Assembly: GCA_042850255.1 (NCBI GenBank)
Contig: AP031373.1
Coordinates: forward strand, 330,001 to 362,000
Origin: Nanobdellota archaeon
GTDB taxonomy: Archaea; Nanobdellota; Nanobdellia; Nanobdellales; Nanobdellaceae
Direction: 5' to 3'
DNA length: 32,000 nucleotides
Under the pieces are notes generated by a model that did no database searches, was not told the origin of the DNA, and saw only the letters and a program-made list of their open reading frames with translations. Shown here piece by piece: positions 5,173 to 27,792 of this stretch; within the stretch, counting starts at the first letter, position 1; each line of letters begins with the position of its first letter. A program made the translations under genes and the position numbers.

Positions 5173-5703
5173 TTATTTTTTAATATTATTATTTATAATA
5201 TCTCTTAGTTTTATTGCATCTTCTTTATTTAACAGTGGTATTTCTATTACAATATTTAAATTTTTATTTAATAATAAAGTATTTGTATAAATTTTTAAGG
5301 AATAACATTTTGTGAGTTTTTCATAAAGATTCTGATCTATTTCTACATTATATATATTTTTATTAGATATACTATATATATTTTCATTTATTATTTGTAT
5401 TAATCTCTCGTTTGTAAAAATTATATAATAATCTTTTCCTTTATTATAATATGATAAGGCAAAATATGATACTATAGAAAATATTATAATTAACAATATT
5501 ACCGAAGTTAATCTTGATATACTACTTGGGTTATATATTATTGAAAAAGAAAATGAGATAAAATATATTGCAAATAATATATATAAAGAAAAGGTATATC
5601 TTAATGAATATAAATTAGGATCAAAATTTACCATAAATAAAGGTTCTTCATTTTCATCTAACTTTATTTTTTCCTTAATTTTTTCTTTATCATATATTAT
5701 CAT
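5173..5703 (-). CDS. Membrane protein with two TM helices and a C-terminal bPH-like (YdbS/YdbT-type PH) domain
   Basis: Two hydrophobic helices (FSLYILFAIYFISFSFSII and VILLIIIFSIVSYFALS) are followed by the pattern YYIIFTNERLIQI...IYNVEIDQNLYEKL...SLKIYT, typical of bacterial/archaeal PH domains. Confidence 0.5.
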   Translation of the reverse strand: MIIYDKEKIKEKIKLDENEEPLFMVNFDPNLYSLRYTFSLYILFAIYFISFSFSIIYNPSSISRLTSVILLIIIFSIVSYFALSYYNKGKDYYIIFTNERLIQIINENIYSISNKNIYNVEIDQNLYEKLTKCYSLKIYTNTLLLNKNLNIVIEIPLLNKEDAIKLRDIINNNIKK

Positions 5704-5754: not shown

Positions 5755-6216
5755 ATGTCAAGGTTGAATAAATATTGGTTTATACTATTTGTAATATTTT
5801 CAGTAATAGGTGTAGTTGTATCTTCAATATTATTATATACATATTACTTTCTTCATATATCTCCATTATTTTGTCCAGAAAATTATAATATATTAGGAGT
5901 GGATATAAATTGTTTGAAAGTTTTATCAAGTAGTTATTCAAAATTGTTCAATTTACCATTAGATTTTTTAGCATTAATATGGTTTATAATTGATATTTCT
6001 CTTGTAACAATTTATAATTATTTGAAATATAATATATTTAGAATTTTATTTTATTGGAGACTTCTAGGTTTATTATTTATACCATATTTAATTTATACAG
6101 AAATAATGGTAATTAATTCTATATGTATATATTGTACTACAATGCAATCTATGATTATATTAGATTTTATTATTTCAATAATATATTCGTATAAAAATAA
6201 AATAAAATTAATATAA
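5755..6216 (+). CDS. Vitamin K epoxide reductase (VKOR) family membrane thiol oxidoreductase
   Basis: There are four or five hydrophobic segments. A loop cysteine pair (CPENYNILGVDINC) is followed by the SSSYSKLFNLPLDFLAL motif (the SxYS..F..P pattern of VKOR). An intramembrane CxxC (CIYC) is also present. Confidence 0.7.
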   Translation: MSRLNKYWFILFVIFSVIGVVVSSILLYTYYFLHISPLFCPENYNILGVDINCLKVLSSSYSKLFNLPLDFLALIWFIIDISLVTIYNYLKYNIFRILFYWRLLGLLFIPYLIYTEIMVINSICIYCTTMQSMIILDFIISIIYSYKNKIKLI

Positions 6217-6251
6217 TAAAATTTATAATTTACAATGGTTTTTAATTATTC

Positions 6252-6440
6252 ATGAGAAATGATATATCAATTGATATGATAATATTTATCATTATAGGAT
6301 TAATAATATTAATATTGGCAGCATTTTTCGTAGCAAAAATTTATTATAGTGGATATAATACCGCAAATCAATCTAATAATTTTATAAATAGTACATTTGA
6401 AAATGTTACAAATACATCTATTCCATCATTAGTACAATGA
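6252..6440 (+). CDS. Small prepilin-like / N-terminally anchored protein (62 aa)
   Basis: MRN-DISIDMIIFIIIGLIILILAAFFVA is followed by an Asn/Ser/Thr-rich tail carrying N-x-S/T sequons (NST, NVT, NTS). Its stop overlaps the next start (ATGA at 6437-6440). Confidence 0.6.
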   Translation: MRNDISIDMIIFIIIGLIILILAAFFVAKIYYSGYNTANQSNNFINSTFENVTNTSIPSLVQ

Positions 6441-8773
6441 AAAGTGATGTATTAAATTTTATTTATTATACAATAATATTTATTATAATTATTACTGGTG
6501 TTATATTTATTTTATTATCTATATTTAAGTTCCATTTTTCCTTCTTTACTTATTATTCTGAAACTTCATTTTCAAATAATAATGCAAATAATAATAATCA
6601 TAACAATAATATACCTCAAATAAATTCCACTATTGCAGTATATTTATATTATAAAAGTGGTTTAAGTATATCATTTATACAACAATTACCAGAAGGTATA
6701 AATTATGTAATAAATACATCATATTATAATTTAAAAGGAGTACAAAATACAAATTTATTACAAATAATACCAAGTTTAATAATAAATAATACATTTAATA
6801 TTTATACAATACAATCTGCAGATTGTAATAATATAGTAGGAAATGGACAACCATGTTTGCAAACTAATATAACATTAGAAAATATTACAACAAATTCTAC
6901 AAGTGTTAGTTATAATGGATATACATGTTCTGTAAGTTCTAGTAGTTCTCAAACATATCCTGCAGGAGGTTTTGCATTATTTTGTATAGTTTGTTATGGT
7001 ACAAACAATCCTAATTCTGCATATTATTATATAAATAATCCTATACAAATAAATATAACTCCCGGAATATCTTTATTAAATAATTTCCCAAATACAAATT
7101 ACTATAATTATACTGTTACATTAACATTACAAAATGAAACAATAAAAGTAATACCTTTGGCAGTACAAGGTGCATATCAAATGCCAAATTTTCAAACAGT
7201 ACTAGTAAAAATTACATCTCCTTTTAATCAATATGTAAATAATAATGGAGATAATGTAATATTCTTTACACAAGATATACAAAATGGACAATATTATGCA
7301 TTACCATCTTGGTATGCTGGGGAAAATAATGGTAATTATTATTTCTTTGTTAATTTATTAGAATTTCCTGAATTATATGAAGAGAATTTACAAGGATGTG
7401 CATATTTACCATTATATATTGGATTTACAAATAATAATTTATATTCAATATTAAATGGAACTATTGGAGGAGATCCAATTGCAATAGATCCTAATAATCC
7501 TGTAAGTGTAATGCAATATGATAACGGACCAAATGTATTTCCAATATATGTAAACTTTTATAATTATGGATATCATGATCATTGGCAAGAAATAGGTAAT
7601 AATATTTACCAATGGTACGATTTTAGTAATGTATTACCTACATATAATTATTGGACATTAAACGGAAGTATAATTACTGGTAATCCTAGTTTACAAGTAA
7701 CATCAAATGGTCCGATGTATGGATTGGAAATGTTGAATGGAACAAATCAAGGATCTTATATATTAATTAATTCTACAGTATTAAATTATTATTTCCAAAA
7801 TTATTTAAATAGTCAAGGAGTAGGAATAAATACATTTGTATACTTTTCAGGAATCCCATGGGAGGATTCTCCTCCTTCAGATCCTTATAATCCATTTGGA
7901 TCTGCACCATTAGTTTCCGATGGTATAGTTATTTCGTATATTACAAAAGGTACTCCGCTTACGCCTTCAATAGTTGTAAGTTTTAATTCTATGTTGCCTA
8001 CTAATAATCTTACTTTTGTGCTATTTGAGTATGGTTGGGGTACTGGTGCTGCAGGATCTGGAGAAGTTGCTGGTTATTATGTAGGACAAACTGATGGTAA
8101 TAACTATCAGTTTTATTATGGAGGATCTGGATGGAGCTGGATTTGGAATTGGTTTAGTTCAGGTTGGAAATTAAATTATTATTTTGGACAAGTAATTAAT
8201 AATCAAAATAATATACAATCTTCATCTCAATATATCCCATTTGACCCTCAAGATCAACAAAAAAATCAAAATTATGATTATTATGGAATACTATATACAT
8301 ATTTATGGTATAATATAAGTTCTCAGAATCCTAGTAATATAAATACATACTTTTTAGTAAATGGAAACATATATAACAGTCCATTACCAAAATCTAATTA
8401 TCAATGGAGTTGTAGCTGGTCTGGATGTTATCATGCAGAAGCAATAATACCCGAACCGCCTAGTTCATATTTTATTCAAAGTTATCACAATGCGTATCAA
8501 ACTGCATTTGTAGCTGAAGGAAATGTATCATTGAATAATTATCAAAATCCAATTTCACCAACTGGTTTGAGTTATGGATTTATTTATGGTACTTTTGGAT
8601 ATAAAGAAAAATATGGAAATATAAGAATTGATTATTTGAATGCAAATGCACAATATTATCAAGGAACACCTTATTTATTTATATCTACAGGATCAGGAGC
8701 AGGAAGTGGATATATGTATTTAGATTGGGTTATTGCAACATTTGGAGTTCCTTATGAAATAAACGTACCTTAA
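6437..8773 (+). CDS. Large N-terminally anchored secreted protein (778 aa), Asn/Tyr/Trp/Gly-rich; putative adhesin or lectin-like
   Basis: MKS-DVLNFIYYTIIFIIIITGVIFILLSIF is followed by a poly-Asn tract (NNNANNNNHNNN). It has many sequons and 8 Cys by my count. An aromatic/Gly-rich block reads YGWGTGAAGSGEVAGYY...GGSGWSWIWNWFSSGWKLNYYFGQ. No catalytic motif was recognised. Confidence 0.8.
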   Translation: MKSDVLNFIYYTIIFIIIITGVIFILLSIFKFHFSFFTYYSETSFSNNNANNNNHNNNIPQINSTIAVYLYYKSGLSISFIQQLPEGINYVINTSYYNLKGVQNTNLLQIIPSLIINNTFNIYTIQSADCNNIVGNGQPCLQTNITLENITTNSTSVSYNGYTCSVSSSSSQTYPAGGFALFCIVCYGTNNPNSAYYYINNPIQINITPGISLLNNFPNTNYYNYTVTLTLQNETIKVIPLAVQGAYQMPNFQTVLVKITSPFNQYVNNNGDNVIFFTQDIQNGQYYALPSWYAGENNGNYYFFVNLLEFPELYEENLQGCAYLPLYIGFTNNNLYSILNGTIGGDPIAIDPNNPVSVMQYDNGPNVFPIYVNFYNYGYHDHWQEIGNNIYQWYDFSNVLPTYNYWTLNGSIITGNPSLQVTSNGPMYGLEMLNGTNQGSYILINSTVLNYYFQNYLNSQGVGINTFVYFSGIPWEDSPPSDPYNPFGSAPLVSDGIVISYITKGTPLTPSIVVSFNSMLPTNNLTFVLFEYGWGTGAAGSGEVAGYYVGQTDGNNYQFYYGGSGWSWIWNWFSSGWKLNYYFGQVINNQNNIQSSSQYIPFDPQDQQKNQNYDYYGILYTYLWYNISSQNPSNINTYFLVNGNIYNSPLPKSNYQWSCSWSGCYHAEAIIPEPPSSYFIQSYHNAYQTAFVAEGNVSLNNYQNPISPTGLSYGFIYGTFGYKEKYGNIRIDYLNANAQYYQGTPYLFISTGSGAGSGYMYLDWVIATFGVPYEINVP

Positions 8774-8792
8774 AAAATAATTATAAAAAATA

Positions 8793-9827
8793 TTATTGTC
8801 CGCTATAAAAAGTATTAATATTAGTAATTGGAAGGTTGCCCCCATATGTTTGAGATGTTGTAAATGAAAGGAATCCATATGGTATTAATGTATTATTATT
8901 TGTTTGTATTACATCTTCGGCACCGAAAACATAAGGTTGAGGAGCATATTTAGCCATATCTCCAGTTTCTAATACTAAATTCCATAATGTTTGATTAGTC
9001 ATTTGTAAATATTGTAAACCATTAGCACCTACAGCCATTGCTTTATAATTTCCTGTTCCTAATGCTTCCATATATTCTTTTGCAAAACCTTGTGGTACAA
9101 CAACATCAGTATAACTTTGTGGATTTAACTTGTCTAACAATATTGTATTATTGTGTGTTATTGGTAATACTATTCCATTTGGATTATATATTGTTATAAT
9201 TTGTTCTAATGGAACATAGTTTGAATTATTTGGTACTACATTTTGATTAAATTGTTGTGGTACATTTAATGATTGTGCAAAATCTGGTCTCATTTGTAAA
9301 TTATATGTTCCTAAATCATGTAAATGACCATGTGGTCCTACATAATATAATGTACCTTGATCATTTCCATCATATTTTATAAATGCATAATCAGGAAGTT
9401 TTAATACTTGTACACTCGGTTGAGAATTTATGTCATGTAATCCAAATAATATTCCTAGAGCAATAGCAGCAGCACCAACAGCTCCAACACCTATAGCTAA
9501 ATACTTTGTGAATTTAATACTACTTTTAGTCTTTTTATAGTTATATTTATCAATTGTTCCATCCTTATATGCACCTTCTATTAAATTATCTAAATATCCT
9601 AATTGTCCTTTAACAGAATTATATGCTCTTACAGGTGGTAATAAATAAATAAATGTCGTTCCATATATCTTTGCCTCTTCTCCTATTTCTTTTAATTTAT
9701 TATCCAAGTAAGATCCATAATAATTTGCCTTTTCTTTTAATGATCTAAAACCATTCATTATTTTTGACCCTACACCTTTCGGTTTTAAAATGTTATCCAA
9801 CCTAGTATTACCTTTGTTTCCTAACAT
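8793..9827 (-). CDS. Bitopic membrane protein: ~110 aa cytoplasmic N-domain, one Gly/Ala-rich TM, ~210 aa external domain
   Basis: A 344-codon ORF. The central helix is YLAIGVGAVGAAAIALGILFGL, preceded by KKTKSSIKFTK (positive-inside). No cysteines by my reading. It is the only opposite-strand gene inside the island. Confidence 0.75.
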   Translation of the reverse strand: MLGNKGNTRLDNILKPKGVGSKIMNGFRSLKEKANYYGSYLDNKLKEIGEEAKIYGTTFIYLLPPVRAYNSVKGQLGYLDNLIEGAYKDGTIDKYNYKKTKSSIKFTKYLAIGVGAVGAAAIALGILFGLHDINSQPSVQVLKLPDYAFIKYDGNDQGTLYYVGPHGHLHDLGTYNLQMRPDFAQSLNVPQQFNQNVVPNNSNYVPLEQIITIYNPNGIVLPITHNNTILLDKLNPQSYTDVVVPQGFAKEYMEALGTGNYKAMAVGANGLQYLQMTNQTLWNLVLETGDMAKYAPQPYVFGAEDVIQTNNNTLIPYGFLSFTTSQTYGGNLPITNINTFYSGQ

Positions 9828-9915
9828 ATAATATAATTTATTTAAGCTTTTTTAAATTTTATCACCATCTGGTATTAAAATTACTATTATAAATTTCTAA
9901 GGATTACTATAAAAA

Positions 9916-11187
9916 ATGAGAAAAAAAGGACAAGAATCAACAATTATAAGCATAGTAATACCTATAATAATATTTATTATAATAATTGTTTTCTTATTTT
10001 TCTTATTAAAAGCAGCTTCATATTCTGGTAGATTACCTGCAAAATTTGGATATGCTTTAGCAGGTTCAATAAGTTTAATAGTAAATAAACCAGCACAAAT
10101 TGCTCAATCAATTGGAGAAGATGGTTTAATAGCGCTTGCTGGTTTCGCAGCTGCAGCTTTTATAATAGGGGGAGCTGATGCTTTAGGAGGAGAGGAAGAT
10201 ATAGTTCCTGCAGAAGAAGAGGAAACAATAGGAAATACAAAGGATTTAACACAAGATTTTTCTCAGTTAGAAAGTACAGTAGGAAATCCAGGAGATGAAG
10301 AAGGTTCATTATCTACATTTTTAAAGGGAGGAGCGAGCGCTGTAGGAAAATTAATAGGAAATCCTTTATATCAAAATTCTTTACTATTTTTTGGAGGATT
10401 GTTTCTTATAGGAGATATTACTAATACAATAGCATCAGAAATACAAACACCAATATTAAACTATTTAGCTCCAGAAGGTGTATATTTTATAGATTTTAAT
10501 AGTTTATCTTCTAGTGATTTAAATCAAATGTATCAAAATTTAAATCAATCTTTTGTAAAACCAATAGAACAATATTGTCAAAATCCACAGAGTCCGGAAT
10601 GTGAAAATATATTTTTAACATATTTAATAGCATTAGATTTATATTATACGTGGGGAGAAACGTTGGGACAATCTGTAGCAATAGCAGGATCCCATGACGA
10701 ATATTTTATTGGATATATAAATTATAATTCTGGTAATTATAATGTTACACAAGAGGGTGTTTTATGTATGTTGGGAATGATGGACTTTTTCGGACAATCT
10801 CCCTTGGATCAGATGTATAATATGAATCTACAAGAATTACTTAGTGATATTAATTATGATGGAGATTTAGAATGCCAAATAGCAAAACAGGTTTTAAATA
10901 TAAATTTAGTAAGCAGTGGTACACCATGTTCATCTAGTAGCGCAAATATACCAGATACTGTAACTCAAATGGATGTATATGAAACATATGAGGTTCAGCA
11001 TAATTCTGTATCTTTTTATCAATGCTCCTCATCGCAACCATCAGATTATAATATTATTATTCCTTCCACTAATGGTAATTATTATTCCGGATACTTACAA
11101 TATTTATATGATGGAGGAACACAAGGAATTATAGTTTCATCAGTATTTGGAGAACAATCAAATAATCAACAAAGTTCAAGTCAATAA
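9916..11187 (+). CDS. Prepilin-like N-terminus protein (423 aa) with further hydrophobic segments and a Cys-containing C-terminal domain
   Basis: MRKKG-QESTIISIVIPIIIFIIIIVFLFFLL has the basic residues, Gly and polar residue then long hydrophobic helix expected of an archaeal class III signal peptide. There are two more hydrophobic stretches (GLIALAGFAAAAFIIGGA and SLLFFGGLFLIGDITNTIA). An acidic linker (EEDIVPAEEEE) is present, and I count 6 Cys. Confidence 0.8.
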   Translation: MRKKGQESTIISIVIPIIIFIIIIVFLFFLLKAASYSGRLPAKFGYALAGSISLIVNKPAQIAQSIGEDGLIALAGFAAAAFIIGGADALGGEEDIVPAEEEETIGNTKDLTQDFSQLESTVGNPGDEEGSLSTFLKGGASAVGKLIGNPLYQNSLLFFGGLFLIGDITNTIASEIQTPILNYLAPEGVYFIDFNSLSSSDLNQMYQNLNQSFVKPIEQYCQNPQSPECENIFLTYLIALDLYYTWGETLGQSVAIAGSHDEYFIGYINYNSGNYNVTQEGVLCMLGMMDFFGQSPLDQMYNMNLQELLSDINYDGDLECQIAKQVLNINLVSSGTPCSSSSANIPDTVTQMDVYETYEVQHNSVSFYQCSSSQPSDYNIIIPSTNGNYYSGYLQYLYDGGTQGIIVSSVFGEQSNNQQSSSQ

Positions 11188-11219
11188 TACTTATAAATTA
11201 CAAAGAATCCAATATTCTT

Positions 11220-11351
11220 ATGGATAATACTTTGTTAGGAATCATAATAGCATTAATATTCTTTATATTAATTTTAATATTAGTATTTGTAGTTTTGGGG
11301 CCAAATATAGGTTATAATATAAGAATATTTGCAATAAACAATGTTCCGTAA
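11220..11351 (+). CDS. Micro-ORF (43 aa), single hydrophobic helix; not in the supplied ORF track
   Basis: Manual translation from ATG 11220 to TAA 11349-11351 gives MDNTLLGIIIALIFFILILILVFVVLGPNIGYNIRIFAINNVP. It overlaps the next ORF start (11341) by 11 nt. Confidence 0.45.
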   Translation: MDNTLLGIIIALIFFILILILVFVVLGPNIGYNIRIFAINNVP

Positions 11352-11532
11352 AAGATCAGATACTTCTACAGATTTTTTAGTTTATGTAGTATTATTTATA
11401 GTTGCTTTATTAATAGTAGTAGCATTTATGGTGTTTTATTTCCATGGTGGAGTAAATCTATTTAAAAGTGTAAAACCAGCAAATGGATCTGTAATTGTTA
11501 ATGATGTACAAAATAATAATTATAATCCATGA
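11341..11532 (+). CDS. Small prepilin-like protein (63 aa)
   Basis: MFRKRS-DTSTDFLVYVVLFIVALLIVVAFMVF is followed by a short polar tail with the sequon NGS. Its stop overlaps the next start (ATGA at 11529-11532). Confidence 0.6.
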   Translation: MFRKRSDTSTDFLVYVVLFIVALLIVVAFMVFYFHGGVNLFKSVKPANGSVIVNDVQNNNYNP

Positions 11533-11678
11533 AATCTGATATATCTATAAGTTTTTTAATATACTTAATAATCGCAATAATAATTATTATACTAGCAATA
11601 ATATTTTATTATACAATATATCATGGATCTGTAGCTCTTAATGTAACATCTGTAGGATATAAATTCCTAAATCAATGA
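11529..11678 (+). CDS. Micro-ORF (49 aa), prepilin-like; not in the supplied ORF track
   Basis: Manual translation gives MKSDISISFLIYLIIAIIIIILAIIFYYTIYHGSVALNVTSVGYKFLNQ. The N-terminus closely resembles those of 6252 (MRNDISIDM...) and 6437 (MKSD...). ATGA overlaps occur at both ends (11529-11532 and 11675-11678). Confidence 0.5.
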   Translation: MKSDISISFLIYLIIAIIIIILAIIFYYTIYHGSVALNVTSVGYKFLNQ

Positions 11679-12589
11679 GAACTTTATTATTCAAATTTAT
11701 ATTTGAACTAATAGTTCTAATAATATTAATAATTATGATATATGTAGTTGTAGAAGCACTTATAGGTTCTCAATTATCTACAGAACATCAATATATAAAA
11801 TATACAAAAGATATAGGTGATATATTTGATGGAACTTCTCAACAATTATTCATACCTCAATATAATCCAGAGTTTGTACCAGTTCTAGTTATAGGAAAAG
11901 ATAATTATGTATATATTGAAATGTATAAATGTAGTTATAACATAAATTCAGAATTTCCTTCAATGCCCTTATGGAATGTTTCAGAGGGAAATGGTATTTA
12001 TTTATTTGCACCCGATTTATCTCAATGTATATTAATTTATCAATATGGTATAGGATCTTGTAGTAAATTTAATAATAATATAAATGTTTATATAAGTTCT
12101 TTGGGCGGTGCAGCAGGTTATGTAATAGCATCTCCAGGACCTTTATCAACTATACCTCAAATTCTTGTTCCATTTGTATATGTATCAATATATTCAGATC
12201 CGATAACAAATATTGTATTTAGGAATATATATAATCTTCAAACATATATAGATAATGATACTGTTATAAGTTGTAGTTGTAACGGTGGATCTGCACAATG
12301 TGAGGTAGAATTTGATGGTAATTCTTATCCATTAGAATGTTATCTTTCATTAGGTTCTAATATAGAAGCATGTGCAGAATTATCAGGAATGATAATTACA
12401 ACTTCTAGCAATTTCTTTACAAATCTTTATGATCAAGACATTTTAACTGGATCTGAAATAAATATAAATAATGAACAATATCCATACTTGCTTCTATATT
12501 TAGGTCAGTTTGTAAGTAATCCAATATTATTAGTAGAAAATGAAAATGGCGGAATATATTTTTACTATGAAATTCCTGTAAAGCAATAA
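11675..12589 (+). CDS. N-terminally anchored secreted protein (304 aa), Cys-rich
   Basis: MRTLLFKFIFELIVLIILIIMIYVVV opens the protein. I count 8 Cys, including the cluster ISCSCNGGSAQCEVEF. Sequons NVS and NDT are present. No domain was recognised. Confidence 0.8.
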   Translation: MRTLLFKFIFELIVLIILIIMIYVVVEALIGSQLSTEHQYIKYTKDIGDIFDGTSQQLFIPQYNPEFVPVLVIGKDNYVYIEMYKCSYNINSEFPSMPLWNVSEGNGIYLFAPDLSQCILIYQYGIGSCSKFNNNINVYISSLGGAAGYVIASPGPLSTIPQILVPFVYVSIYSDPITNIVFRNIYNLQTYIDNDTVISCSCNGGSAQCEVEFDGNSYPLECYLSLGSNIEACAELSGMIITTSSNFFTNLYDQDILTGSEININNEQYPYLLLYLGQFVSNPILLVENENGGIYFYYEIPVKQ

Positions 12590-12590
12590 A

Positions 12591-13751
12591 ATGGAGGAAG
12601 AATTGTTAGAAGGAATTATAGCTTCTGTATTTTTAATTATAGTTGCTTTAATTGGATTTTTTTTACCAAGATTAGCTTCTGAATTCTTTAACTCTCATAA
12701 TCCATATCTAGTTTTAGAAGTAGCAGGATTTTTAACTTATTCTACTTCGGAACCTGGTAATATTTCTGCTTTAATACCAGTAACTCAAGCTGCAGATCAA
12801 GAACTAGAGTTTAGAATAATACCTCCAATAAGTACTGGTTGGGTATTTTCAACATATGATAATAGCGATTTTGCAGTAGCAATTGGATATTGTGTAGAAC
12901 AAAATTTATGGCAGCAGTTAGGATATGATGCTTTAAATGCCTTAATTAATGCAGTATTCGCATATTTTAAAGGTGGAGGGCTAGTTAGTGATGAAGCACC
13001 TTTAAGTAGTATAATTTTCAATAGTATAAAATTTTCTTCGGAAATGTATGCAGCAAATACACTGCAATTAGCAGCTTTAAATGTTTATGAGAATTATGGA
13101 CTTTACAGTGGTAATTTTGTTCAAAATCTTGCCACATCTTTTCAATCTGCTCTTGGAGAATCTGCTATTTTTACAGGAGAAAATGTTATAGAAACTTATA
13201 TTGATTCTGCATTATTCTTTGTTGCAGATTTTGGTGGTCCAATTGGATTTTTAGCAGCTACTGCTATTAATTTTGCAATAAATGCTATAGTTACATTTAT
13301 ACAATACGAAAATGTACAAAGTAATGAATTTGCAAGATGTTATAATTATTGTGAATATAAAAATAGTTGTAATGGTAACTATTTCATATATAATAATTTA
13401 CTATTATTCCAAGTTTATTATAACCCACAATTTGATATATATGATGACTGTAGTTCGCCAGAGTTATGTAATAATCAGTTAACACAAACAATATGTTTAA
13501 GTTATGAACAAGTAGTAGTTAATGGAATACCTAAAGAAGTATGTACAAATGAAGAAACAGTAGTAAGGGATACTATACCAGCATATAATTCTCAAAATCC
13601 AAATGAAGATTATATAATTAAGATAGAATTAGGATATTATAATCAAACTACTGGAGAATTTTATTATCCAGAGTTTTTATTATTACAAAAGGTTGGAGGA
13701 AATCCATTTGGGTATATAAATGTTAGCGTTTATTATACTAAATATTCATGA
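12591..13751 (+). CDS. N-terminally anchored protein (386 aa) with an internal hydrophobic region and a Cys-rich C-terminal domain
   Basis: MEEELLEGIIASVFLIIVALIGFFL opens the protein. An internal hydrophobic stretch reads FFVADFGGPIGFLAATAINFAINAIVTFI. I count 8 Cys (ARCYNYCEYKNSCNGN, DDCSSPELCNN, ...). It starts 1 nt after the upstream stop. Confidence 0.8.
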   Translation: MEEELLEGIIASVFLIIVALIGFFLPRLASEFFNSHNPYLVLEVAGFLTYSTSEPGNISALIPVTQAADQELEFRIIPPISTGWVFSTYDNSDFAVAIGYCVEQNLWQQLGYDALNALINAVFAYFKGGGLVSDEAPLSSIIFNSIKFSSEMYAANTLQLAALNVYENYGLYSGNFVQNLATSFQSALGESAIFTGENVIETYIDSALFFVADFGGPIGFLAATAINFAINAIVTFIQYENVQSNEFARCYNYCEYKNSCNGNYFIYNNLLLFQVYYNPQFDIYDDCSSPELCNNQLTQTICLSYEQVVVNGIPKEVCTNEETVVRDTIPAYNSQNPNEDYIIKIELGYYNQTTGEFYYPEFLLLQKVGGNPFGYINVSVYYTKYS

Positions 13752-14653
13752 GAGCATTAGGATTAAAAGATATAATTGAATACATACTTGCTGCTGTTAT
13801 TGTTGTAGTTTTTACTATATTATTAATATTTTTCTATGGATTTTACGAAACTGAACAATATAATCTACAATCTTATGAAATATTTTATCAATCCTTGTTA
13901 GTTGATAGATTAAATTATTGTTTATATAAATATACGGGAAATCCTTATTATTTATTTTATGCTCCATCAAATAGTACATTACAAGAATATTGGAATAAAC
14001 TTGAAGGATGCTTTATGAATTATTCTGGATTTTTTGAAGTACCAATTCAGTATTATAAGGTTACTAGTAATGTAAATGGAGAAGTTGAAGAAAATTATAC
14101 TATAGAATATGCTAATTTATCATATGTAGGAGTACCATATTTAATATTTTATAACATAAATAATTTATCAAAAAGTTACATATTTTATTATAATCAAACT
14201 TTTAGTGGATCTTTAATATCAAATAATTATTTAGAAGCTTCTGCATTCTTACTTGGAGCATCATCTTTAATTATCAGTACTTTAGCTACTAGTTATGTAA
14301 GTCCTCCATCTTCTGTAAATGTAAATAATAATAATCAACTATACAGTTTATTATCCCAATATTTATTAAACGAATCTAATTATACTGAACAATTATTACA
14401 AAATATTACTGCATATAATAATACATTTGAAGATTTTTATAAAGAGTGTGTACAAAATGGATTTAAAGAAGGTATATTTATGTATCCAATGTTATCAAAA
14501 TCCATTTTTGAAGTAAATTATAATGGAGAACCAATAAATATTGGAGTATACCAATTTGGATTAGTAATATATAATAAATTATATAATGCTACTTGTGAAT
14601 ATATAAATGGCAAAATAACTAATAATTGTGATATAACAACTAATGGTCAGTAA
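13748..14653 (+). CDS. N-terminally anchored secreted protein (301 aa)
   Basis: MRALG-LKDIIEYILAAVIVVVFTILLIFF opens the protein. It carries many sequons (NST, NYS, NYT, NLS, NQT, NES, NIT, NNT, NAT) and 5 Cys by my count. An ATGA overlap joins it to the upstream gene. Confidence 0.8.
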   Translation: MRALGLKDIIEYILAAVIVVVFTILLIFFYGFYETEQYNLQSYEIFYQSLLVDRLNYCLYKYTGNPYYLFYAPSNSTLQEYWNKLEGCFMNYSGFFEVPIQYYKVTSNVNGEVEENYTIEYANLSYVGVPYLIFYNINNLSKSYIFYYNQTFSGSLISNNYLEASAFLLGASSLIISTLATSYVSPPSSVNVNNNNQLYSLLSQYLLNESNYTEQLLQNITAYNNTFEDFYKECVQNGFKEGIFMYPMLSKSIFEVNYNGEPINIGVYQFGLVIYNKLYNATCEYINGKITNNCDITTNGQ

Positions 14654-15125
14654 AAAAAGTCAAATAGGATTTTTCTTATCTTTAATAATATCTGCTATAT
14701 TATTTCTATTCATGATAATTTATTTATTATATGTAAGTAAAAATGAACCTGCTTCATTATATGGAGTTGCATCAATACAATTGGAAGGACTTGAATATAA
14801 ATCTTCTAATGGATATTTAAATTCTTTGATGTATTATGATGGAATAAAAGTACCAGTTATAGATTTATATGGAGGATATTATAATAACGAAAATCTAAGG
14901 GATTATATAATGAATCAGACAATAAATGATACTATATATTATTTAAATTATTCATCTACAATATTATACTTTAACTTTTTTGGAAATCAAACGGGTATTT
15001 GCTATAATGGATATTTAGTAAGTTATCATATTTATTTGGATGGAAAAAGTATATTATATCAAACCTGTCCCCCAACTACATTATCAATATACTATTATAA
15101 TATAACATGTTTAGATCTTCAATAG
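14643..15125 (+). CDS. Prepilin-like / N-terminally anchored secreted protein (160 aa)
   Basis: MVSKKS-QIGFFLSLIISAILFLFMIIYLLYV opens the protein. Sequons NQT, NDT, NYS and NIT are present. It overlaps the upstream gene by 11 nt. Confidence 0.75.
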   Translation: MVSKKSQIGFFLSLIISAILFLFMIIYLLYVSKNEPASLYGVASIQLEGLEYKSSNGYLNSLMYYDGIKVPVIDLYGGYYNNENLRDYIMNQTINDTIYYLNYSSTILYFNFFGNQTGICYNGYLVSYHIYLDGKSILYQTCPPTTLSIYYYNITCLDLQ

Positions 15126-15156
15126 TTATATAAGTAAAAAGGATTTATAATAAATT

Positions 15157-16620
15157 ATGAGAAAAAGAGGATCGCTTGCTCCTTTGGTATTATTGGTATC
15201 AATTATTATATTATTAATTTTTGCATTTTATTATCTAACTTCTCAGGTAAATAGTGAAGTATTAGATATGGAATATTTATCTGAAGATTATGCAAGTTAT
15301 CAAAAAGCTTTATATTATATTTTTGTTTATGTACCATTTGAAATAAGATATAATCTAGTTAATTTAATATTAACAAATCTATATTCAAATGGTAATACAT
15401 ATAATATAAATAATATATTAGTAAATACTAATTATTATTCTACTTGTCAAATACCATTTGTAGAAAATTTAAATCAGAATGGTGATAATTCATTCTCTTA
15501 TTCCTTATGTATTCCTTTACTATATGTAGAAAATTGTCAAAATAATAATCCAACGCTTTTTGTTGATATATTAAATAATGTACAACAATCTTTGGGAAAT
15601 ATAAAAGATAGTACATTGAGTTTTTCTGGATTTTCTGAAGGACAATGTCAATATTATTTAGAAAATGTACAATATAATTTCACTATTGAAAATGAATATT
15701 CTAGAGTAATAAATTTTGGTAATATAAATTATCCATTTTATTCTTATGAATTGTATTATGATTATATAATATCATATTTATATAATCAAACATATGGATT
15801 TTTTAATTATGTTATAAATAATCAAAGTAATTTTTCTACTTATTCTAATTATATATATTATAATCAAACTCAAGGAGATAATGTTTATTTAAATTTATCT
15901 TTTAATAATAACGCTTATTATGTTTTAGACTTATATTATAATACATTATTACCACTTCAAGATCCAAATATGACAAATATAACAATAGTATTACCATGTG
16001 AAGCATTTGGCCAATTATATAACGGTAATTGTATAGCAAATCAAACATTAGAAAATTATCAATATGAATGTTTATATACAAAATCTGAAAATTTGCAATA
16101 TTTATTTAGTAAATTAAAATATAAATTGTTTAAGCAAAAAATATTTGATGGATATTGGTATAATATTACAAGCATAAATTATCAATATTCATTATCAAAT
16201 TTACCTCCAGATTTTTTAGATTGTAGTAATACAATAAATTTTGCTGAAAAAATTGTTGGAAATTATACATATTTTACTGGAGGAGATTATCCTGTATTAG
16301 TTCCAGTTAATATACAAGTTAATTATAATAATATTTCATGTTCTATTAAAAATCAAATATTTCAATTTGGACCTTTTAGTAGTATAGGTAGTTGTGATAA
16401 TGAGCAAAATATAGTAGATAATATATTAATAAGTAATAATGTCAACAATTGCATTATGAATGCATGTACAGAAATTAATAACAATTATTATTTTAATTTA
16501 ACATGTAATGATATTGTTCAAACTCAATATTTAAATTCTTTTAATTATAATTATCAAATATACGAATGGTTTAATATAAATGATAAAAATATTAATAATT
16601 TCTGTAGTAGTTTACAATAA
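15157..16620 (+). CDS. Prepilin-like / N-terminally anchored secreted protein (487 aa), Cys-rich, Asn/Tyr-rich
   Basis: MRKRG-SLAPLVLLVSIIILLIFAFYYL opens the protein. I count 14 Cys, all downstream of the helix. Sequons are dense. The 3' end overlaps convergent taw3 by 29 nt. Confidence 0.8.
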   Translation: MRKRGSLAPLVLLVSIIILLIFAFYYLTSQVNSEVLDMEYLSEDYASYQKALYYIFVYVPFEIRYNLVNLILTNLYSNGNTYNINNILVNTNYYSTCQIPFVENLNQNGDNSFSYSLCIPLLYVENCQNNNPTLFVDILNNVQQSLGNIKDSTLSFSGFSEGQCQYYLENVQYNFTIENEYSRVINFGNINYPFYSYELYYDYIISYLYNQTYGFFNYVINNQSNFSTYSNYIYYNQTQGDNVYLNLSFNNNAYYVLDLYYNTLLPLQDPNMTNITIVLPCEAFGQLYNGNCIANQTLENYQYECLYTKSENLQYLFSKLKYKLFKQKIFDGYWYNITSINYQYSLSNLPPDFLDCSNTINFAEKIVGNYTYFTGGDYPVLVPVNIQVNYNNISCSIKNQIFQFGPFSSIGSCDNEQNIVDNILISNNVNNCIMNACTEINNNYYFNLTCNDIVQTQYLNSFNYNYQIYEWFNINDKNINNFCSSLQ

Positions 16621-17188
16621 TTTTATAAAATTTTTCTATTCTTTTCCTTACAATACTTAATTTTTCATTTGCTTCATTAATCAACTCCTTAAAATAATAT
16701 TTATCTATTAATAATTTTTTATTTTTAGATACTAAAGTTTCTATTTTTTCATTTCCAACTATTTCTACCATAATTCTATCTTTTGATATTAAAAATATCC
16801 CAGAATGCTTAAATCCGGCTTTTCTAGCTAGTTCTAATATTTCATAACCTTTTTCTAAATTTATTGAAGAAATATGTAAAATAAATGGTTCTTGTTTGAA
16901 ATATATTTTTTCATCATATAATTTATATACTTCTAATAATTTATCCCAAATATAATAAAAATTTACTGGATAATGGGATTTAAACAAAAAATCTGCCTCA
17001 AATTTTTTCCCAGATTTAGGTATTTTTAATAATATTATTCTCCCTGCACAAGATGATGTTGTAAAGAAATAATTTAACGAATTAATATAATCTAATAAAT
17101 AATATATAGGTTGATCTGCTAAATAATTTTCCTTTGCTTCTTTCAATTTATTCATGTGATATATTTTTAATTTATCAAAGTTATTCAT
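16592..17188 (-). CDS. taw3: tRNA wyosine-derivative methyltransferase Taw3 (TYW3 family)
   Basis: The motif FFTTSSCAGRIILL matches the TYW3/Taw3 signature (S/T)xSSCxGR. The ~198 aa length is typical. Confidence 0.7.
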   Translation of the reverse strand: MNNFDKLKIYHMNKLKEAKENYLADQPIYYLLDYINSLNYFFTTSSCAGRIILLKIPKSGKKFEADFLFKSHYPVNFYYIWDKLLEVYKLYDEKIYFKQEPFILHISSINLEKGYEILELARKAGFKHSGIFLISKDRIMVEIVGNEKIETLVSKNKKLLIDKYYFKELINEANEKLSIVRKRIEKFYKIIVNYYRNY

Positions 17189-17193
17189 ATTAT

Positions 17194-17667
17194 ATGGATA
17201 AGGAGAAAATAATATTAAATATATTATTCCTTATAATGGTAATACCTATGATATATCTAATATATTATTCTTATACAACATTCTTTAAGAAACAAAATAC
17301 TGTAAATCCATCAAATCCTTATAATTTATATATATCAGATTTTTCAGTTAATGGAGATTCTTTTTCATTTTATGTAACAAATCCATCAAATTATACATTA
17401 CAGTTATATTTTACATATTTGGGAATAAAAAATTCATACCAATCTTCTTCAATAATTGTTGATGCTCCATTTATTAATAATGTCTATTATTTAAAACCAG
17501 ATGAAAAAGTATATATAAATTATGATTTTTCAATAGATGAAGATACAAGAACTGTGATATTACAATGGGAAAGATTAGGAGGTTATTTATATCTATCCTT
17601 ATATTATCAAACAATAGGAAATAATTCTGTAAATGGAATAATAAACTATGAAATAGAAAAAAGTTAG
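17194..17667 (+). CDS. N-terminally anchored hypothetical protein (157 aa from Met at 17194)
   Basis: The track ORF starts at 17134 but would overlap the taw3 start by 55 nt. The in-frame ATG at 17194 gives MDKEKIILNILFLIMVIPMIYLIYYSY, followed by a beta-rich polar domain. Confidence 0.6.
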   Translation: MDKEKIILNILFLIMVIPMIYLIYYSYTTFFKKQNTVNPSNPYNLYISDFSVNGDSFSFYVTNPSNYTLQLYFTYLGIKNSYQSSSIIVDAPFINNVYYLKPDEKVYINYDFSIDEDTRTVILQWERLGGYLYLSLYYQTIGNNSVNGIINYEIEKS

Positions 17668-18851
17668 ACTTTATCTAAATCGCTTATTGTATATATCTTT
17701 ACTTTATTGCTAGATTTCTGTATAGAATCTATACAAATTACATATTTTATATTAGTATTTCTTTCTATTAGTTCTAATAATTCTCTAGTTAATATACCAT
17801 CCATTACTAAATAAGATATATTCTGACTTTTCATTAATACTTCATCCAATTTTTCCACTGGTACCTTATTTATAACATTTAAATTATCATCTAATAACAC
17901 TGCTTGATCTGTTTTAAATACATTTTCCATATGTGTCTTTAATTTTTGTAGTACCGGATCTTTTATTTTCTTTTCTTCTCTCATAACTTTTACTTCTTCT
18001 ATAGATCCTTCTAATTTCTCATAATACATTCTTACTTGATCAAATGCAACTCTATTCTTTAAAGCTTTCATTATTTCTTTTCTAGATAATTCTTCTACTT
18101 CTTTTCCAGGATCTGGTTTTGCAACAAAGTCAATATCGACACCACTTAGCATACATTCTTTTACTAATAAATCTCCTCCTCTATCTCCATCAAAGAATGT
18201 TGTTATAATCTTTTTCTTAGATAATTCTATTACGGTTTTTGGTACATTTAATCCATTTAATGCAATTACATTTGTAATTCCATATCTTAATAAATTTAAT
18301 ACATCAGCTCTCCCTTCTACCAATATTATTTCTTCAGATCTATCTACATCAGGACCTGCAGGTAACTTTTCAGATCCATATTCTATTAATGTTTTCATAT
18401 TTTGTGAATATTCTAAATATAATAATAGTTCTTTTGGATCTGGTAATTCTTCATTAATTAATTTATTTAATAAATCTCTAGCTCTTTCCAATATATGTTG
18501 TACTTTCGTTTTTCTTACATCCTCTATTTTTTGTATCTTTATTGTTGCATGTGTTGGTCCTATTCTAGTTACAGTTTCCAATGTTGCAGCAATCAGGGAT
18601 GTTTCAAATCTATTTAAACTTGTAGGTATTCTGATTTCTCCTATAGTTTTATTGTTTTCTACTTTTAAATCTACCTCTATTCTTCCAACTTTTCCAGATC
18701 TCTGTAATTCTCTCAAATCCATTTCAGATCCTAGTAGCCCTTCTGTTTGCCCAAATATTGCTCCTATTACATCTGGTTTCTCAACTACTCCATCAATGTA
18801 TACGGACGCATGTATTATATATTTAATATAAGGAGGTGACATTTTCGCCAT
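17664..18851 (-). CDS. dnaG: Archaeal DnaG-type primase / exosome-associated TOPRIM protein
   Basis: The N-terminal YIIHASVYIDGVVEKPDVIGAIFGQTEGLLG is characteristic of archaeal DnaG. TOPRIM motifs are LVEGRADVLNL and FFDGDRGGDLL. Confidence 0.9.
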   Translation of the reverse strand: MAKMSPPYIKYIIHASVYIDGVVEKPDVIGAIFGQTEGLLGSEMDLRELQRSGKVGRIEVDLKVENNKTIGEIRIPTSLNRFETSLIAATLETVTRIGPTHATIKIQKIEDVRKTKVQHILERARDLLNKLINEELPDPKELLLYLEYSQNMKTLIEYGSEKLPAGPDVDRSEEIILVEGRADVLNLLRYGITNVIALNGLNVPKTVIELSKKKIITTFFDGDRGGDLLVKECMLSGVDIDFVAKPDPGKEVEELSRKEIMKALKNRVAFDQVRMYYEKLEGSIEEVKVMREEKKIKDPVLQKLKTHMENVFKTDQAVLLDDNLNVINKVPVEKLDEVLMKSQNISYLVMDGILTRELLELIERNTNIKYVICIDSIQKSSNKVKIYTISDLDKV

Positions 18852-18963
18852 TATTAATAATTTTTAGAAAGATATTTAATCCTACATATAAATGATAATA
18901 ATTATTCTTGAGTAGTATAAGTAAATAGATATATGTATAAATAACAGAGTTGTATAATACTCT

Positions 18964-20127
18964 ATGGCAGATATTAAGAACAAGCAAGTTGCATCAGCGA
19001 TGTCGCAGAGTGATAACAAGAAAGTGACATTTAGTGTAATAAAAGCAGATGTAGGAGGATTCCCCGGACACCATGTAGTACATCCTGTATTAGAAGAAAC
19101 GGCAGAAGGTGTTTTAGATGAGGCAGTAGGGGAAACGATATTTGATTTTGCAGTATCTCACGTAGGAGACGATTTAATTTTGATAATGTTGCATAATAAA
19201 GGAACAGATAATCCAGAAGTTCATGGATTAGCATGGAAAGTATTCCAAAAATGTACAGAAGTTGCAAAAGAAATGGGGTTATACGGTGCAGGACAGGATT
19301 TATTATCAAATGCATTCTCAGGTAACGTAAGAGGACTTGGTCCCGGAGTTGCAGAGATGTCCTTTACATTAAGACCTTCAGAACCAATAATAGTATTTGG
19401 AGCAGATAAAACAGAATCTGGAGCATTTAATTATCCATTGTATCAAATGTTTGCAAATCCATTTAATACACCAGGATTGGTAATAGATCCAGATATGCAT
19501 ATGGGATTTAGATTTGAAATATGGGACTTAATAAATCATCAAAGAGTATTTATGAGTGCTCCAGAAGAGTCATATGATATATTAGCATTAATAGGATCAA
19601 TTGAAAGGTTTGCTATAAAAAGAGTTTATCCAAAACCAGGACATAAGTGGCCTTCAGATGAGCCAGTTGCAGTTTCATCAACTGAAAGGTTATTTGAAGA
19701 AGCTGGAAGATATGTAGGAAAGGATGATCCTGTAATGGTAGTAAGGGCTCAAAATGGTTTTCCAGCAGTTGGAGAAGTATTAGAACCATTTGCATTCCCA
19801 TTTATGGTAGATGGATGGATGAGGGGATCTCATTGGGGTCCATTAATGCCAGTATCTGTTAAAATGGCTCATCCATCAAGATTTGATGGTCCACCAAGAG
19901 TTATTGCATTAGGATTCCAAGTAAAGAATGAAAAATTACATGGACCAGAAGATATGTTTGATGATCCAGCATTTGACTATGCAAGACAAAGGGCAAACGA
20001 TATAGCAGATTATATGAGGAGACATGGACCATTCGAGCCTCATAGAGTATCATATGAAGATTTAGAGTATACAACTATACCAGCTATATTAGAAAAGTTA
20101 AAGAACAGGTTCGAAAAGTTACCATAG
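18964..20127 (+). CDS. fbp: Fructose-1,6-bisphosphate aldolase/phosphatase (class V FBPase)
   Basis: The N-terminal SVIKADVGGFPGHHVVHP is present and conservation is strong throughout. The ~387 aa length is typical of the archaeal bifunctional enzyme. Confidence 0.9.
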   Translation: MADIKNKQVASAMSQSDNKKVTFSVIKADVGGFPGHHVVHPVLEETAEGVLDEAVGETIFDFAVSHVGDDLILIMLHNKGTDNPEVHGLAWKVFQKCTEVAKEMGLYGAGQDLLSNAFSGNVRGLGPGVAEMSFTLRPSEPIIVFGADKTESGAFNYPLYQMFANPFNTPGLVIDPDMHMGFRFEIWDLINHQRVFMSAPEESYDILALIGSIERFAIKRVYPKPGHKWPSDEPVAVSSTERLFEEAGRYVGKDDPVMVVRAQNGFPAVGEVLEPFAFPFMVDGWMRGSHWGPLMPVSVKMAHPSRFDGPPRVIALGFQVKNEKLHGPEDMFDDPAFDYARQRANDIADYMRRHGPFEPHRVSYEDLEYTTIPAILEKLKNRFEKLP

Positions 20128-27606: not shown

Positions 27607-27792
27607 GTAATCACTTATCCATTGATACATAGATTTAGATATATTTATAAATATATTTGAAAAACTTTATATATTTAATATATAAATATTTCTAATAGTA
27701 AAACTTATATTTATCAAAAGCGTATAATATATACCAGAATTTTGAAATAAAACATTTGAGCTTATTATATATGCTTTTGGAATTTATAAATA

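Follow-up and report, generated by a model that had tools for sequence, protein, structure and literature searches.

Introduction

What do three overlapping micro-genes, each encoding little beyond one hydrophobic helix, contribute to a symbiotic archaeon, and are they genes in the first place? The question is raised by a short region in the genome of Nanobdellota archaeon YN1 (AP031373), of which a 32-kb stretch, called the window here, was analysed; all window coordinates are positions in that stretch. The Nanobdellales are among the few cultured DPANN symbionts, and the way in which they attach to and feed on their hosts is still an open question. YN1 itself is an obligate ectosymbiont of Sulfurisphaera ohwakuensis, and its genome has a guanine-plus-cytosine (GC) content of 23.4% (PMC11420986). 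The window is archaeal and AT-rich, with about 23% GC by base composition, and its genes include homologs of a ribosomal protein, DnaG primase, FBP aldolase/phosphatase and AlaRS. The three micro-genes, m1, m2 and m3, are the best-conserved members of a conserved, fast-evolving and wholly unannotated 13-gene surface island, in which they had been overlooked. Their open reading frames (ORFs), taken from the ORF list and the sequence, and the gene that follows are:

11220-11351, plus strand: m1, 43 residues
11341-11532, plus strand: m2, 63 residues, overlapping m1 by 11 nucleotides (nt)
11529-11678, plus strand: m3, 49 residues, with an ATGA common to the m2 stop and the m3 start
11675-12589, plus strand: G8, 304 residues, with an ATGA common to the m3 stop and the G8 start

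The initial annotation of this DNA had described three micro-ORFs of 43, 63 and 49 residues joined by an 11-nt overlap and by ATGA, and the ORF list and the sequence agree with it to the nucleotide. Beneath the trio, the ORF list contains no minus-strand ORF of at least 25 residues. An Rfam scan of the window found two tRNAs only, and the region of the trio had no match to a known RNA family.

Three micro-genes under purifying selection

At the base composition of the window the probability of a stop codon is 0.092, and the probabilities that 43, 49 and 63 codons stay open are 0.016, 0.009 and 0.002, respectively. Related loci were recovered by searches with m2 and with the 423-residue upstream gene G4 as an anchor, followed by context look-ups, which gave eight loci of distinct sequence on metagenome or genome contigs and ten species-representative genomes, partly the same genomes. 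The sources were two ENA metagenomes, a JGI metagenome, a Nanopusillaceae metagenome-assembled genome, Nanobdella aerobiophila MJ1, a Nanopusillus sp. and Nanobsidianus stetteri. The ten loci from the scan of one genome per GTDB species all belong to Nanobdella, Nanopusillus, Nanobsidianus or unnamed Nanopusillaceae, and include the complete N. acidilobi genome. In all related loci recovered, the frames of m1, m2 and m3 are intact and the gene order is identical; when family profiles were compared with all six-frame ORFs, the order m1-m2-m3 was found in every locus of sufficient length. The overlaps across these loci measure 8 to 14 nt between m1 and m2 and 4 or 11 nt between m2 and m3, and the junction of m3 with the next gene ranges from an overlap of 4 nt to a gap of 1 nt.

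Selection was assessed by the pairwise ratio of nonsynonymous to synonymous substitution rates (dN/dS, Nei-Gojobori), which is 0.18-0.68 for m1, 0.13-0.68 for m2 and 0.06-0.63 for m3 at dS of about 0.07-1.5. No pair in any of the three genes reaches a ratio of 1, and the closest pairs give 0.06-0.25. Between YN1 and Nanobdella, the micro-proteins are 48-55% identical, as compared with 25-42% for most other island proteins and 67-86% for flanking housekeeping proteins. Because frames, order and overlaps are kept, dN/dS is below 1 and identity is higher than in most other island proteins, m1, m2 and m3 are genuine genes on which purifying selection acts, and within the fast-evolving island they are conserved best. 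The comparison of orthologous loci proposed with the initial annotation has therefore come out in favour of the genes.

The trio is picked up by gene callers in several metagenome-assembled genomes and in Nanobdella. The hypothetical proteins MJ1_0044 and MJ1_0045 of the latter are m2 and m3, and m1 is called there as a 44-residue gene, MJ1_0043 by position. The YN1 products of m2 and m3 are present in the public protein collection, from the NCBI record, and the exact m1 product is absent, so that one of the three micro-proteins is missing from the public YN1 protein set. On a JGI contig (locus L008, 2107-2292), m2 has been called from an internal Met, as 48 residues instead of 61.

Anatomy and relationships of the micro-proteins

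The m1 protein has an acidic start (MDNTLL in YN1; MNELLE and METGELL elsewhere), one hydrophobic helix and the conserved tail IGPNIGxNIxIFAxNNVP, which across orthologs follows the pattern IGPxxGxN; it lacks a basic leader. In YN1, m2 consists of the basic leader MFRKRS, then DTSTDF, a long hydrophobic helix, a break at FxGGVNLF and a tail of about 22 residues with an NG[ST] sequon for N-glycosylation. Its orthologs are 61-64 residues long and highly conserved in the helix (LFIVALV), and the N-terminus of 31 of them has a variable start, then [KR][KR]-[T/S/G/A], then [Q/E/D]-x-[S/N]-x-F-L. Examples, with an arrow at the putative processing site, are MDKKT↓QVSTFL, MVKKA↓QVNTFL, MYHKRS↓QVSNFL, MAYHKG↓QISTFL (Nanobdella MJ1_0044) and MFRKRS↓DTSTDFL (YN1). 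The m3 protein starts with MKS, MRS, MEA, MA or MRL (MKSD in YN1), continues with x-[S/A]-I-N-F-L and the helix, and ends in N[VLA]T and GYxxLNQ; Asp4 is invariant in an alignment of six orthologs from close relatives and is replaced by Asn in a few Nanopusillus sequences. The tails carry an N-glycosylation sequon in 26 of 31 m2, all 14 m3 and all 8 G1 sequences, G1 being the 62-residue gene at 6252, and the sequon lies at one aligned column common to the three subfamilies. A topology call from the positive-inside rule was tried and abandoned, the signal being ambiguous for m2 and, for m3, opposite to expectation.

Profile-profile comparison gave a probability of 96% for m2 and m3 (score 46), 97.5% for G1 and m3 (score 56) and 78% for G1 and m2, and the comparison of m1 with m3, a control for shared hydrophobicity, gave 46% (score 22). 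Because the former values lie above this control, m2, m3 and G1 are, on profile evidence, one paralogous family, and m1 is a family separate from m2 and m3. Two further pairings, of m1 with the N-terminus of the 386-residue protein (64%) and of m3 with the N-terminus of the 304-residue G8 (77%), barely exceed the hydrophobic-helix control, and no paralogy is claimed for them. ORFs that match M.{0,4}[KR][GASTN][DQE] and continue into a hydrophobic helix number six in the window, all of them in the island and on the plus strand, and none of 200 first-order Markov shuffles has one, so the shuffling control suggested with the initial annotation speaks for the motif. That annotation had seen the motif in common with two genes 5 kb upstream. 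For the gene at 6252 the profiles bear this out, but for the 778-residue gene at 6437 (G2) the resemblance spans only about 11 residues and is not kept in its orthologs.

A profile search of 5.8 billion proteins returned 49 homologs, all 48-64 residues long and all from this clade or from unnamed metagenome contigs, with names that are absent or merely generic or spurious automatic labels; an exhaustive hidden Markov model search of 1.84 billion cluster representatives gave only 22 matches. The m2/m3/G1 family is narrow and uncharacterised. Distant relatives of the G1/m3 type have the N-termini MKKG↓D, MKKS↓D and MRG↓D. Elsewhere in the Nanobdella aerobiophila genome (AP019769, about 27640-27823; locus L006, 1-184, minus strand), a gene cut by the end of the locus starts with MRKGQSMPINTIIIIIIALIV, which holds a canonical class III-type RKG↓Q. 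It matches the G1 and m3 profiles weakly, and N-termini of the KG↓Q type thus occur elsewhere in that genome.

In some distant relatives, m2 and m3 are fused. One fused ORF (locus L012, 1466-1804; Logan SRR29288674) encodes 112 residues with no internal ATG, and the fusion is also seen in P0064, P0069 and P0071; the database product P0074 has 124 residues since the gene caller read past a TGA stop. In the first of these loci, an m1-like gene of 46 residues precedes the fused ORF, and an MKSQ... gene, with which it has an ATGA in common, follows it. The loop between the helices is strongly basic (...YRSKSKRS↓DTTSFF in the contig from SRR29288674), with KRS↓D or KRG↓D precisely at the second helix, and holds the best class III-like site of the whole family. 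The fusion argues that m2 and m3 would work together at 1:1. The AlphaFold2 model of a fused homolog has one long and one short helix per half, in keeping with the initial annotation, by which each protein is little beyond a hydrophobic helix.

The island around the trio

The island occupies window positions 5755-16620 and consists of a VKOR gene and 12 unannotated membrane or surface proteins. Its members and the putative promoter of the trio are, apart from the genes listed above:

5755-6216, plus strand: VKOR-family membrane oxidoreductase at the head of the island (Pfam PF07884, E = 3.9e-20)
6252-6440, plus strand: G1, 62 residues; MRNDISID, a helix and a tail with two sequons; ATGA in common with G2; Nanobdella ortholog MJ1_0039
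6437-8773, plus strand: G2, 778 residues; MKSDVLNF, a helix and a large Asn/Tyr/Gly-rich domain; no family match
8793-9827, minus strand: G3, 344 residues, the only minus-strand island gene; an N-terminal soluble part of about 105 residues, one helix and a C-terminal domain
9916-11187, plus strand: G4, 423 residues, directly upstream of m1; MRKKG↓QES; Nanobdella ortholog MJ1_0042
11191-11198, plus strand: TATA-like box TTATAAAT, its centre about 26 nt before the m1 ATG
12591-13751, plus strand: G9
13748-14653, plus strand: G10
14643-15125, plus strand: G11
15157-16620, plus strand: G12; like G9 to G11, a short N-terminus and a hydrophobic helix, the four genes being tightly packed

YN1, Nanobdella, Nanopusillus and Nanobsidianus share one gene order: G1, G2, G3 (minus strand), G4, m1, m2, m3 and G8-G12, followed outside the island by TYW3 and DnaG. 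A TTATAAATTACAA-type box stands at an equal distance from m1 in 8 of 10 related loci. The spacing between TATA box and start in archaea is usually like that found upstream of m1. Because the box lies about 26 nt upstream of m1 and is kept across loci, it is likely, judging from its position and conservation, to be the promoter of a leaderless transcript running from m1 to G12.

In most island proteins, the short N-terminus is basic and leads through a small residue into a hydrophobic helix, the first part of which often contains an acidic residue. In G4 the pattern reads KKG↓[QIV]S, G10 starts with M[KR][GAS]↓[LF]SLKDIIEY and G12 with [KR][GST]↓SLAP. The helix at the N-terminus of G8 carries an acidic residue that is conserved (FKIIFEII; MKS[DQ]..FKIIFEII), and G8 also has a large Cys/Asn/Tyr-rich domain without a family match; its N-terminus is only weakly like that of m3 (77% probability). 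An identical 304-residue gene is present on a contig assembled from read set DRR287338. G4 and G9 probably have more than one membrane helix each. Orthologs of G2 measure about 780-880 residues and those of G4 about 380-430, G1 is found at the equivalent position in Nanopusillus and Nanobsidianus, and G3, with 25% identity to Nanobdella, is the least conserved island protein. Cys and Asn abound in the large proteins, which are fast-evolving, and none of the 12 non-VKOR island proteins has a Pfam, NCBIfam or PHROG family match. The VKOR orthologs of Nanopusillus and Nanobsidianus (loci L009 and L010) give the same PF07884 match, and the enzyme would fit disulfide formation in Cys-rich secreted island proteins.

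Several further observations concern the borders of the island. Its GC content is no different from that of the flanking DNA. There is a jump in rate at its end, the island proteins (6252-16620) being 25-55% identical between YN1 and Nanobdella and the adjacent TYW3, DnaG and FBPase (16592-20127) 67-86%. The Nanobdella locus has no VKOR gene between L21e and G1. Just beyond TYW3, in every locus reaching there, lies a gene (window 17194-17667) for a 157-residue protein, MDKEKIILNILF..., with one N-terminal helix and no family match, and it may be a further island member set apart by the TYW3 gene.

A mini-pilin-like reading and its rivals

The reading that we prefer, with a rough probability of one half, is that m1, m2 and m3 are coupled single-helix micro-proteins of a clade-specific envelope assembly, in which m2 is processed and mini-pilin-like and the others pack with it in a helical core or base. 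The clade would be Nanopusillaceae/Nanobdella, the assembly would be encoded by the island, and the trio would supply its small, best-conserved subunits. Transcription from the TATA-like box would produce a leaderless polycistronic mRNA, on which the observed overlaps of 11, 4 and 4 nt may couple the translation of m1, m2, m3 and the 304-residue protein, giving a fixed stoichiometry. In this mechanism m2, m3 and G1 would be miniature type-IV-pilin-like subunits with a short polar N-terminus, a long packing helix and a sequon-bearing tail of about 20 residues, which would be extracellular. The likeliest substrate of a class III signal peptidase would be m2, cut after [KR][KR]-[T/S/G/A] and before Q/E/D, and the helical core or the membrane base of a surface structure may arise as it packs against m3, m1 and the helices that begin the large proteins of the island. 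For m1, the role of a separate partner, probably membrane-resident, is proposed. ATPase, platform and peptidase would be encoded elsewhere, with the archaellum ArlI/ArlJ or the orphan nanoarchaeal type IV pilus ATPase as candidates.

Several features agree with such subunits. The proteins are 48-64 residues long, with one long helix per half of the fused model and sequon-bearing tails, whose location outside the cell is putative. At the putative sites, YN1 has RS↓D in m2, KS↓D in m3 and RN↓D in G1, and at +1 all m2 sequences have Q, E or D and nearly all m3 and G1 sequences D (in a few cases N). The strict FlaFind pattern demands a leader of 3-13 residues, K/R at -2, Gly (or Ala) at -1 and a hydrophobic helix directly after; with -1 relaxed to G/A/S/T, it is found in 29 of 31 m2, 11 of 14 m3 and 0 of 8 G1 sequences. 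Within the trio, m2 is the best mini-pilin candidate, with an N-terminus that follows class III signal peptide logic and is a canonical KG↓Q in Nanobdella. The similar N-termini of most island proteins, the absence of the motif from the shuffles and the KKG↓D, KKS↓D and MRG↓D starts of distant G1/m3-type relatives count in its favour as well, and the VKOR gene at the head of the island and the fast-evolving, Cys- and Asn-rich large proteins speak for an extracellular setting. Predicted PibD substrates include proteins with leaders of three residues (PMC10117864). ArlH, ArlI and ArlJ are encoded elsewhere in the Nanobdella and YN1 genomes (10.1101/2023.10.27.564410; PMC11420986), and for a type IV pilus ATPase present in nanoarchaea, the pilins 'could not be identified' (Makarova et al., PMC4858521).

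A considerable body of observations weighs against this proposal. No pilin, archaellin or class III model (PF04021, PF07790, PF01917, TIGR02537) matched the window proteins, their orthologs or distant relatives, at Pfam E values of up to 1 for window proteins, 5 for the ortholog sets (7 m2, 6 m3) and 0.1 for distant relatives, and at NCBIfam E values of up to 1 for window proteins only. The single related signal was a sub-threshold DUF7287 match of the m2 N-terminus (E = 0.009, 17 bits versus a cutoff of 27), and a sequence search of the PDB with the m2 and m3 profiles gave no match. The strict FlaFind pattern occurs in 1 of 31 m2 (KG↓QIST of Nanobdella, which has the only Gly at -1 in the 31 sequences), 0 of 14 m3 and 0 of 8 G1; at -1, m2 mostly has Thr, and m3 and G1 have Asn, Ser, Ala or Leu. 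An acidic residue at +5, which the initial annotation had taken as reminiscent of pilins, is confined to G1 and a YN1-like subclade of m2, where it is Asp, and Phe occupies the position in most m2 orthologs. The m3 proteins of most species, Nanopusillus and Nanobsidianus among them, begin with MEAD or MAD, an acidic 'leader' of 2-3 residues, and m3 as a whole has a net negative N flank (mean charge -1.4) and a net positive C flank (+0.8), opposite to the charge balance of a prepilin. NGE replaces NGT in five m2 sequences, which have thereby lost the sequon. 

The genomic setting and the fusions weigh in the same direction. Neither an assembly ATPase (PilB/ArlI) nor a platform protein (PilC/ArlJ) is encoded in the island or within 10 kb of it in YN1, Nanobdella, Nanopusillus and Nanobsidianus, and there is no A24 (prepilin) peptidase gene in the 32-kb window or in the related islands; two nanoarchaeal genomes were reported to lack a recognisable prepilin peptidase (Makarova et al., PMC4858521). 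Four distant clusters have m2 and m3 fused as one two-helix protein of 112-117 residues, and the fusion fits a membrane hairpin, which would set the helices antiparallel, better than two separately processed parallel pilins. The AlphaFold2 models are too poor as a test of a pilin fold: that of the fused homolog (predicted local distance difference test, pLDDT, 69; predicted template modelling score 0.34) is usable for secondary structure and not for helix packing, and that of G11 (160 residues, 11 orthologs; pLDDT 43.5) is confident only for helix 4-33. Of the minimal-pilin idea in the initial annotation, the part that concerns m2 gains some support from its N-terminus, size and sequon, but m1 is of a different family, m3 has an acidic leader, m2-m3 fusions exist and the island is without the machinery.

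It is quite possible instead that m1, m2 and m3 form an uncleaved, membrane-resident, hetero-oligomeric helix bundle, with m2 and m3 perhaps antiparallel, which would serve the large island proteins as platform, anchor or aid to insertion and form no filament. The basic loop of the fused protein is in keeping with an N-out, loop-in, C-out hairpin; m1 and m3 each have an acidic N flank and a basic C flank; Gly at -1 is unconserved; and the tight overlaps, which suggest a fixed stoichiometry, and an island without pilus machinery genes would suit a bundle as well. Conservation, too, peaks in the helix and in GG/GP motifs at the helix ends, not at the putative m2 cleavage site. On the other side, the family-wide combination of K/R at -2, a small residue at -1 and an invariant D/Q/E at +1, with KG↓Q and KKG↓D among its forms, is more specific than a plain signal anchor, the same N-terminal architecture stands on five to six co-encoded large extracellular proteins, and the conserved sequons in the tails of m2 and m3 cannot both face out in a simple hairpin.

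The other explanations are close to excluded. That the frames are translated spacers, upstream ORFs which couple ribosomes to the 304-residue gene and yield peptides without function, would agree with the ATGA and 11-nt overlaps that link them to the downstream gene; it is made very improbable by the conservation of sequence, length and the motifs GPNIG, FxGGVNLF and GYxxLNQ at dS up to about 1.5 with dN/dS below 1, by the paralog G1 at a second site in the island and by homologs that also occur as a fused protein. Viruses commonly have tiny overlapping genes for membrane proteins, and hydrophobic peptides of a mobile element or virus, holin-like or toxin-like, would resemble the trio in this respect. 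Such an origin is less probable still, as there is no PHROG match, the GC content of the island is that of its surroundings and the site is the same, between L21e/VKOR and TYW3/DnaG, wherever a locus spans both flanks (YN1, Nanobdella, a Nanopusillus sp. and Nanobsidianus). Least credible of all is that the frames are open by chance or stem from errors of gene calling in AT-rich DNA: spurious ORFs of 25-74 residues are indeed numerous inside other window genes, but each trio frame is improbable by chance (0.002-0.016) and open in every related locus recovered, and with purifying selection and a motif absent from all 200 shuffles, the comparative data refute this explanation for practical purposes.

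The attachment organelle and significance

Nanobdella, YN1 and YN4 build an attachment organelle on their hosts, with a cone, a portal and a filament or tube of about 7-8 nm that reaches into the host cytoplasm (PMC11104419; PMC11420986; 10.64898/2026.06.04.730037), and its protein composition is explicitly stated to be unknown (PMC11420986; PMC11104419; 10.64898/2026.06.04.730037). The island is a reasonable candidate on circumstantial grounds: it was found only in this clade, evolves fast, as host-interaction proteins would, and encodes proteins that look membrane-anchored, extracellular and pilin-like. That it encodes structural parts of this organelle, with m2 and m3 as the helical core of the filament or as a membrane gate, is nevertheless rather unlikely and is offered as a speculation. 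The island proteins are absent from an earlier survey of surface proteins because that survey was confined to proteins in which a signal peptide could be detected.

If m2 and m3 are processed mini-pilins, the repertoire of type IV filaments would come to include a class III site that has Thr or Ser at -1, and the orphan pilus ATPase that Makarova et al. noted in nanoarchaea could have its 'missing' pilins in these two. Otherwise, m2 and m3 would represent a family of single-helix membrane subunits that is new. In both cases they offer concrete targets for proteomics, cryo-electron tomography labelling and structure prediction, for which two to three co-culture systems exist.

Other features of the window

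Three further features of the window may be recorded. Positions 63-1187 and 2264-3607 encode paralogous proteins of 374 and 447 residues, whose C-terminal 75 or so residues are nearly identical (KLINVSYVNNFDEIDKREIRSLIHSY...IKFIPL.KWLLN), a likeness that suggests recent duplication or gene conversion. On the minus strand, 26116-27405 encodes a 429-residue protein with a long Ser/Thr-rich, mucin-like stretch, hydrophobic segments near both ends and no significant family match, which is probably another surface protein. At 5173-5703, also on the minus strand, lies the gene of a 176-residue two-helix membrane protein with a borderline bacterial-PH-domain match (PF03703, E = 2e-4), and a minus-strand gene of similar size stands directly after the L21e gene, at the matching position, in the Nanobdella, Nanopusillus and Nanobsidianus loci.

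Comparison with known systems

The Flp pilins of bacterial Tad systems (PF04964) are helix-only proteins with about 45-60 mature residues, often present as tandem paralogs, and to our knowledge they are always linked to tad/cpa machinery genes. The micro-proteins resemble them as helix-only tandem paralogs, but the Flp pilins are bacterial and have the motif G↓xxxxEY; there was no PF04964 match, and this motif is found in no ortholog. Pf3-coat-like proteins are small and N-out, with an acidic N-tail, one helix and a basic C-flank. The same arrangement is seen in m1 and most m3 orthologs, but there is no homology, the tails of the trio family carry conserved sequons, which argues for a location outside, and the context is chromosomal and conserved, not viral.

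Archaeal minor-pilin loci have at least five minor pilins per locus (Makarova et al., PMC4858521). The island is similar to minor pilins, pseudopilins and class III surface proteins in being a co-encoded set with a common short basic N-terminus and helix and unrelated C-terminal domains of 50-800 residues. It differs in that no ATPase, platform or peptidase gene lies in or beside it, G4 and G9 probably have more than one helix and the strict FlaFind pattern is mostly absent.

The nearest parallel is with the Epd pilins (DUF361/PF04021) of Methanococcus. In Methanococcus maripaludis, the major pilin MMP1685 (EpdE) has 74 residues, 62 of them in the mature form, and is N-glycosylated; MMP1283, MMP0528 and MMP0903 have 67-76 residues, and mature Methanococcus pilins 54-63 (PMC3875500). 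The pilin genes are unlinked from those of the ATPase and platform (PMC3875500). The Epd leader has an invariant Gly at -1, with Glu at +5, whereas here -1 is mostly Thr/Ser and +5 mostly Phe (Asp in YN1); m2, m3 and G1 have no PF04021 match, and no gene for an EppA-like peptidase lies nearby. Because a model match, a conserved Gly at -1 and linked machinery were tested for and not found, membership in DUF361 is not established, and we call m2 and m3 pilin-like single-helix micro-proteins rather than DUF361 members. The comparison with DUF361 and Epd made in the initial annotation is nonetheless apt for m2, given the N-terminus of its 31 orthologs and HKG↓QISTFL in Nanobdella, while the missing PF04021 match and Gly at -1 in only 1 of 31 sequences tell against it. 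At 61-64 residues, m2 is close in size to Epd precursors (67-76 residues) and to their mature forms (54-63). Both have a short basic leader and a polar +1 residue (a conserved Q in Epd; Q/E/D in m2), one long hydrophobic helix and a short tail with a sequon, and in both, several pilin-like genes of widely different size stand together, the Epd set being likewise unlinked from its ATPase and platform genes (PMC3875500). The Epd/DUF361 mini-pilins are thus the closest known proteins to the micro-proteins of this island.

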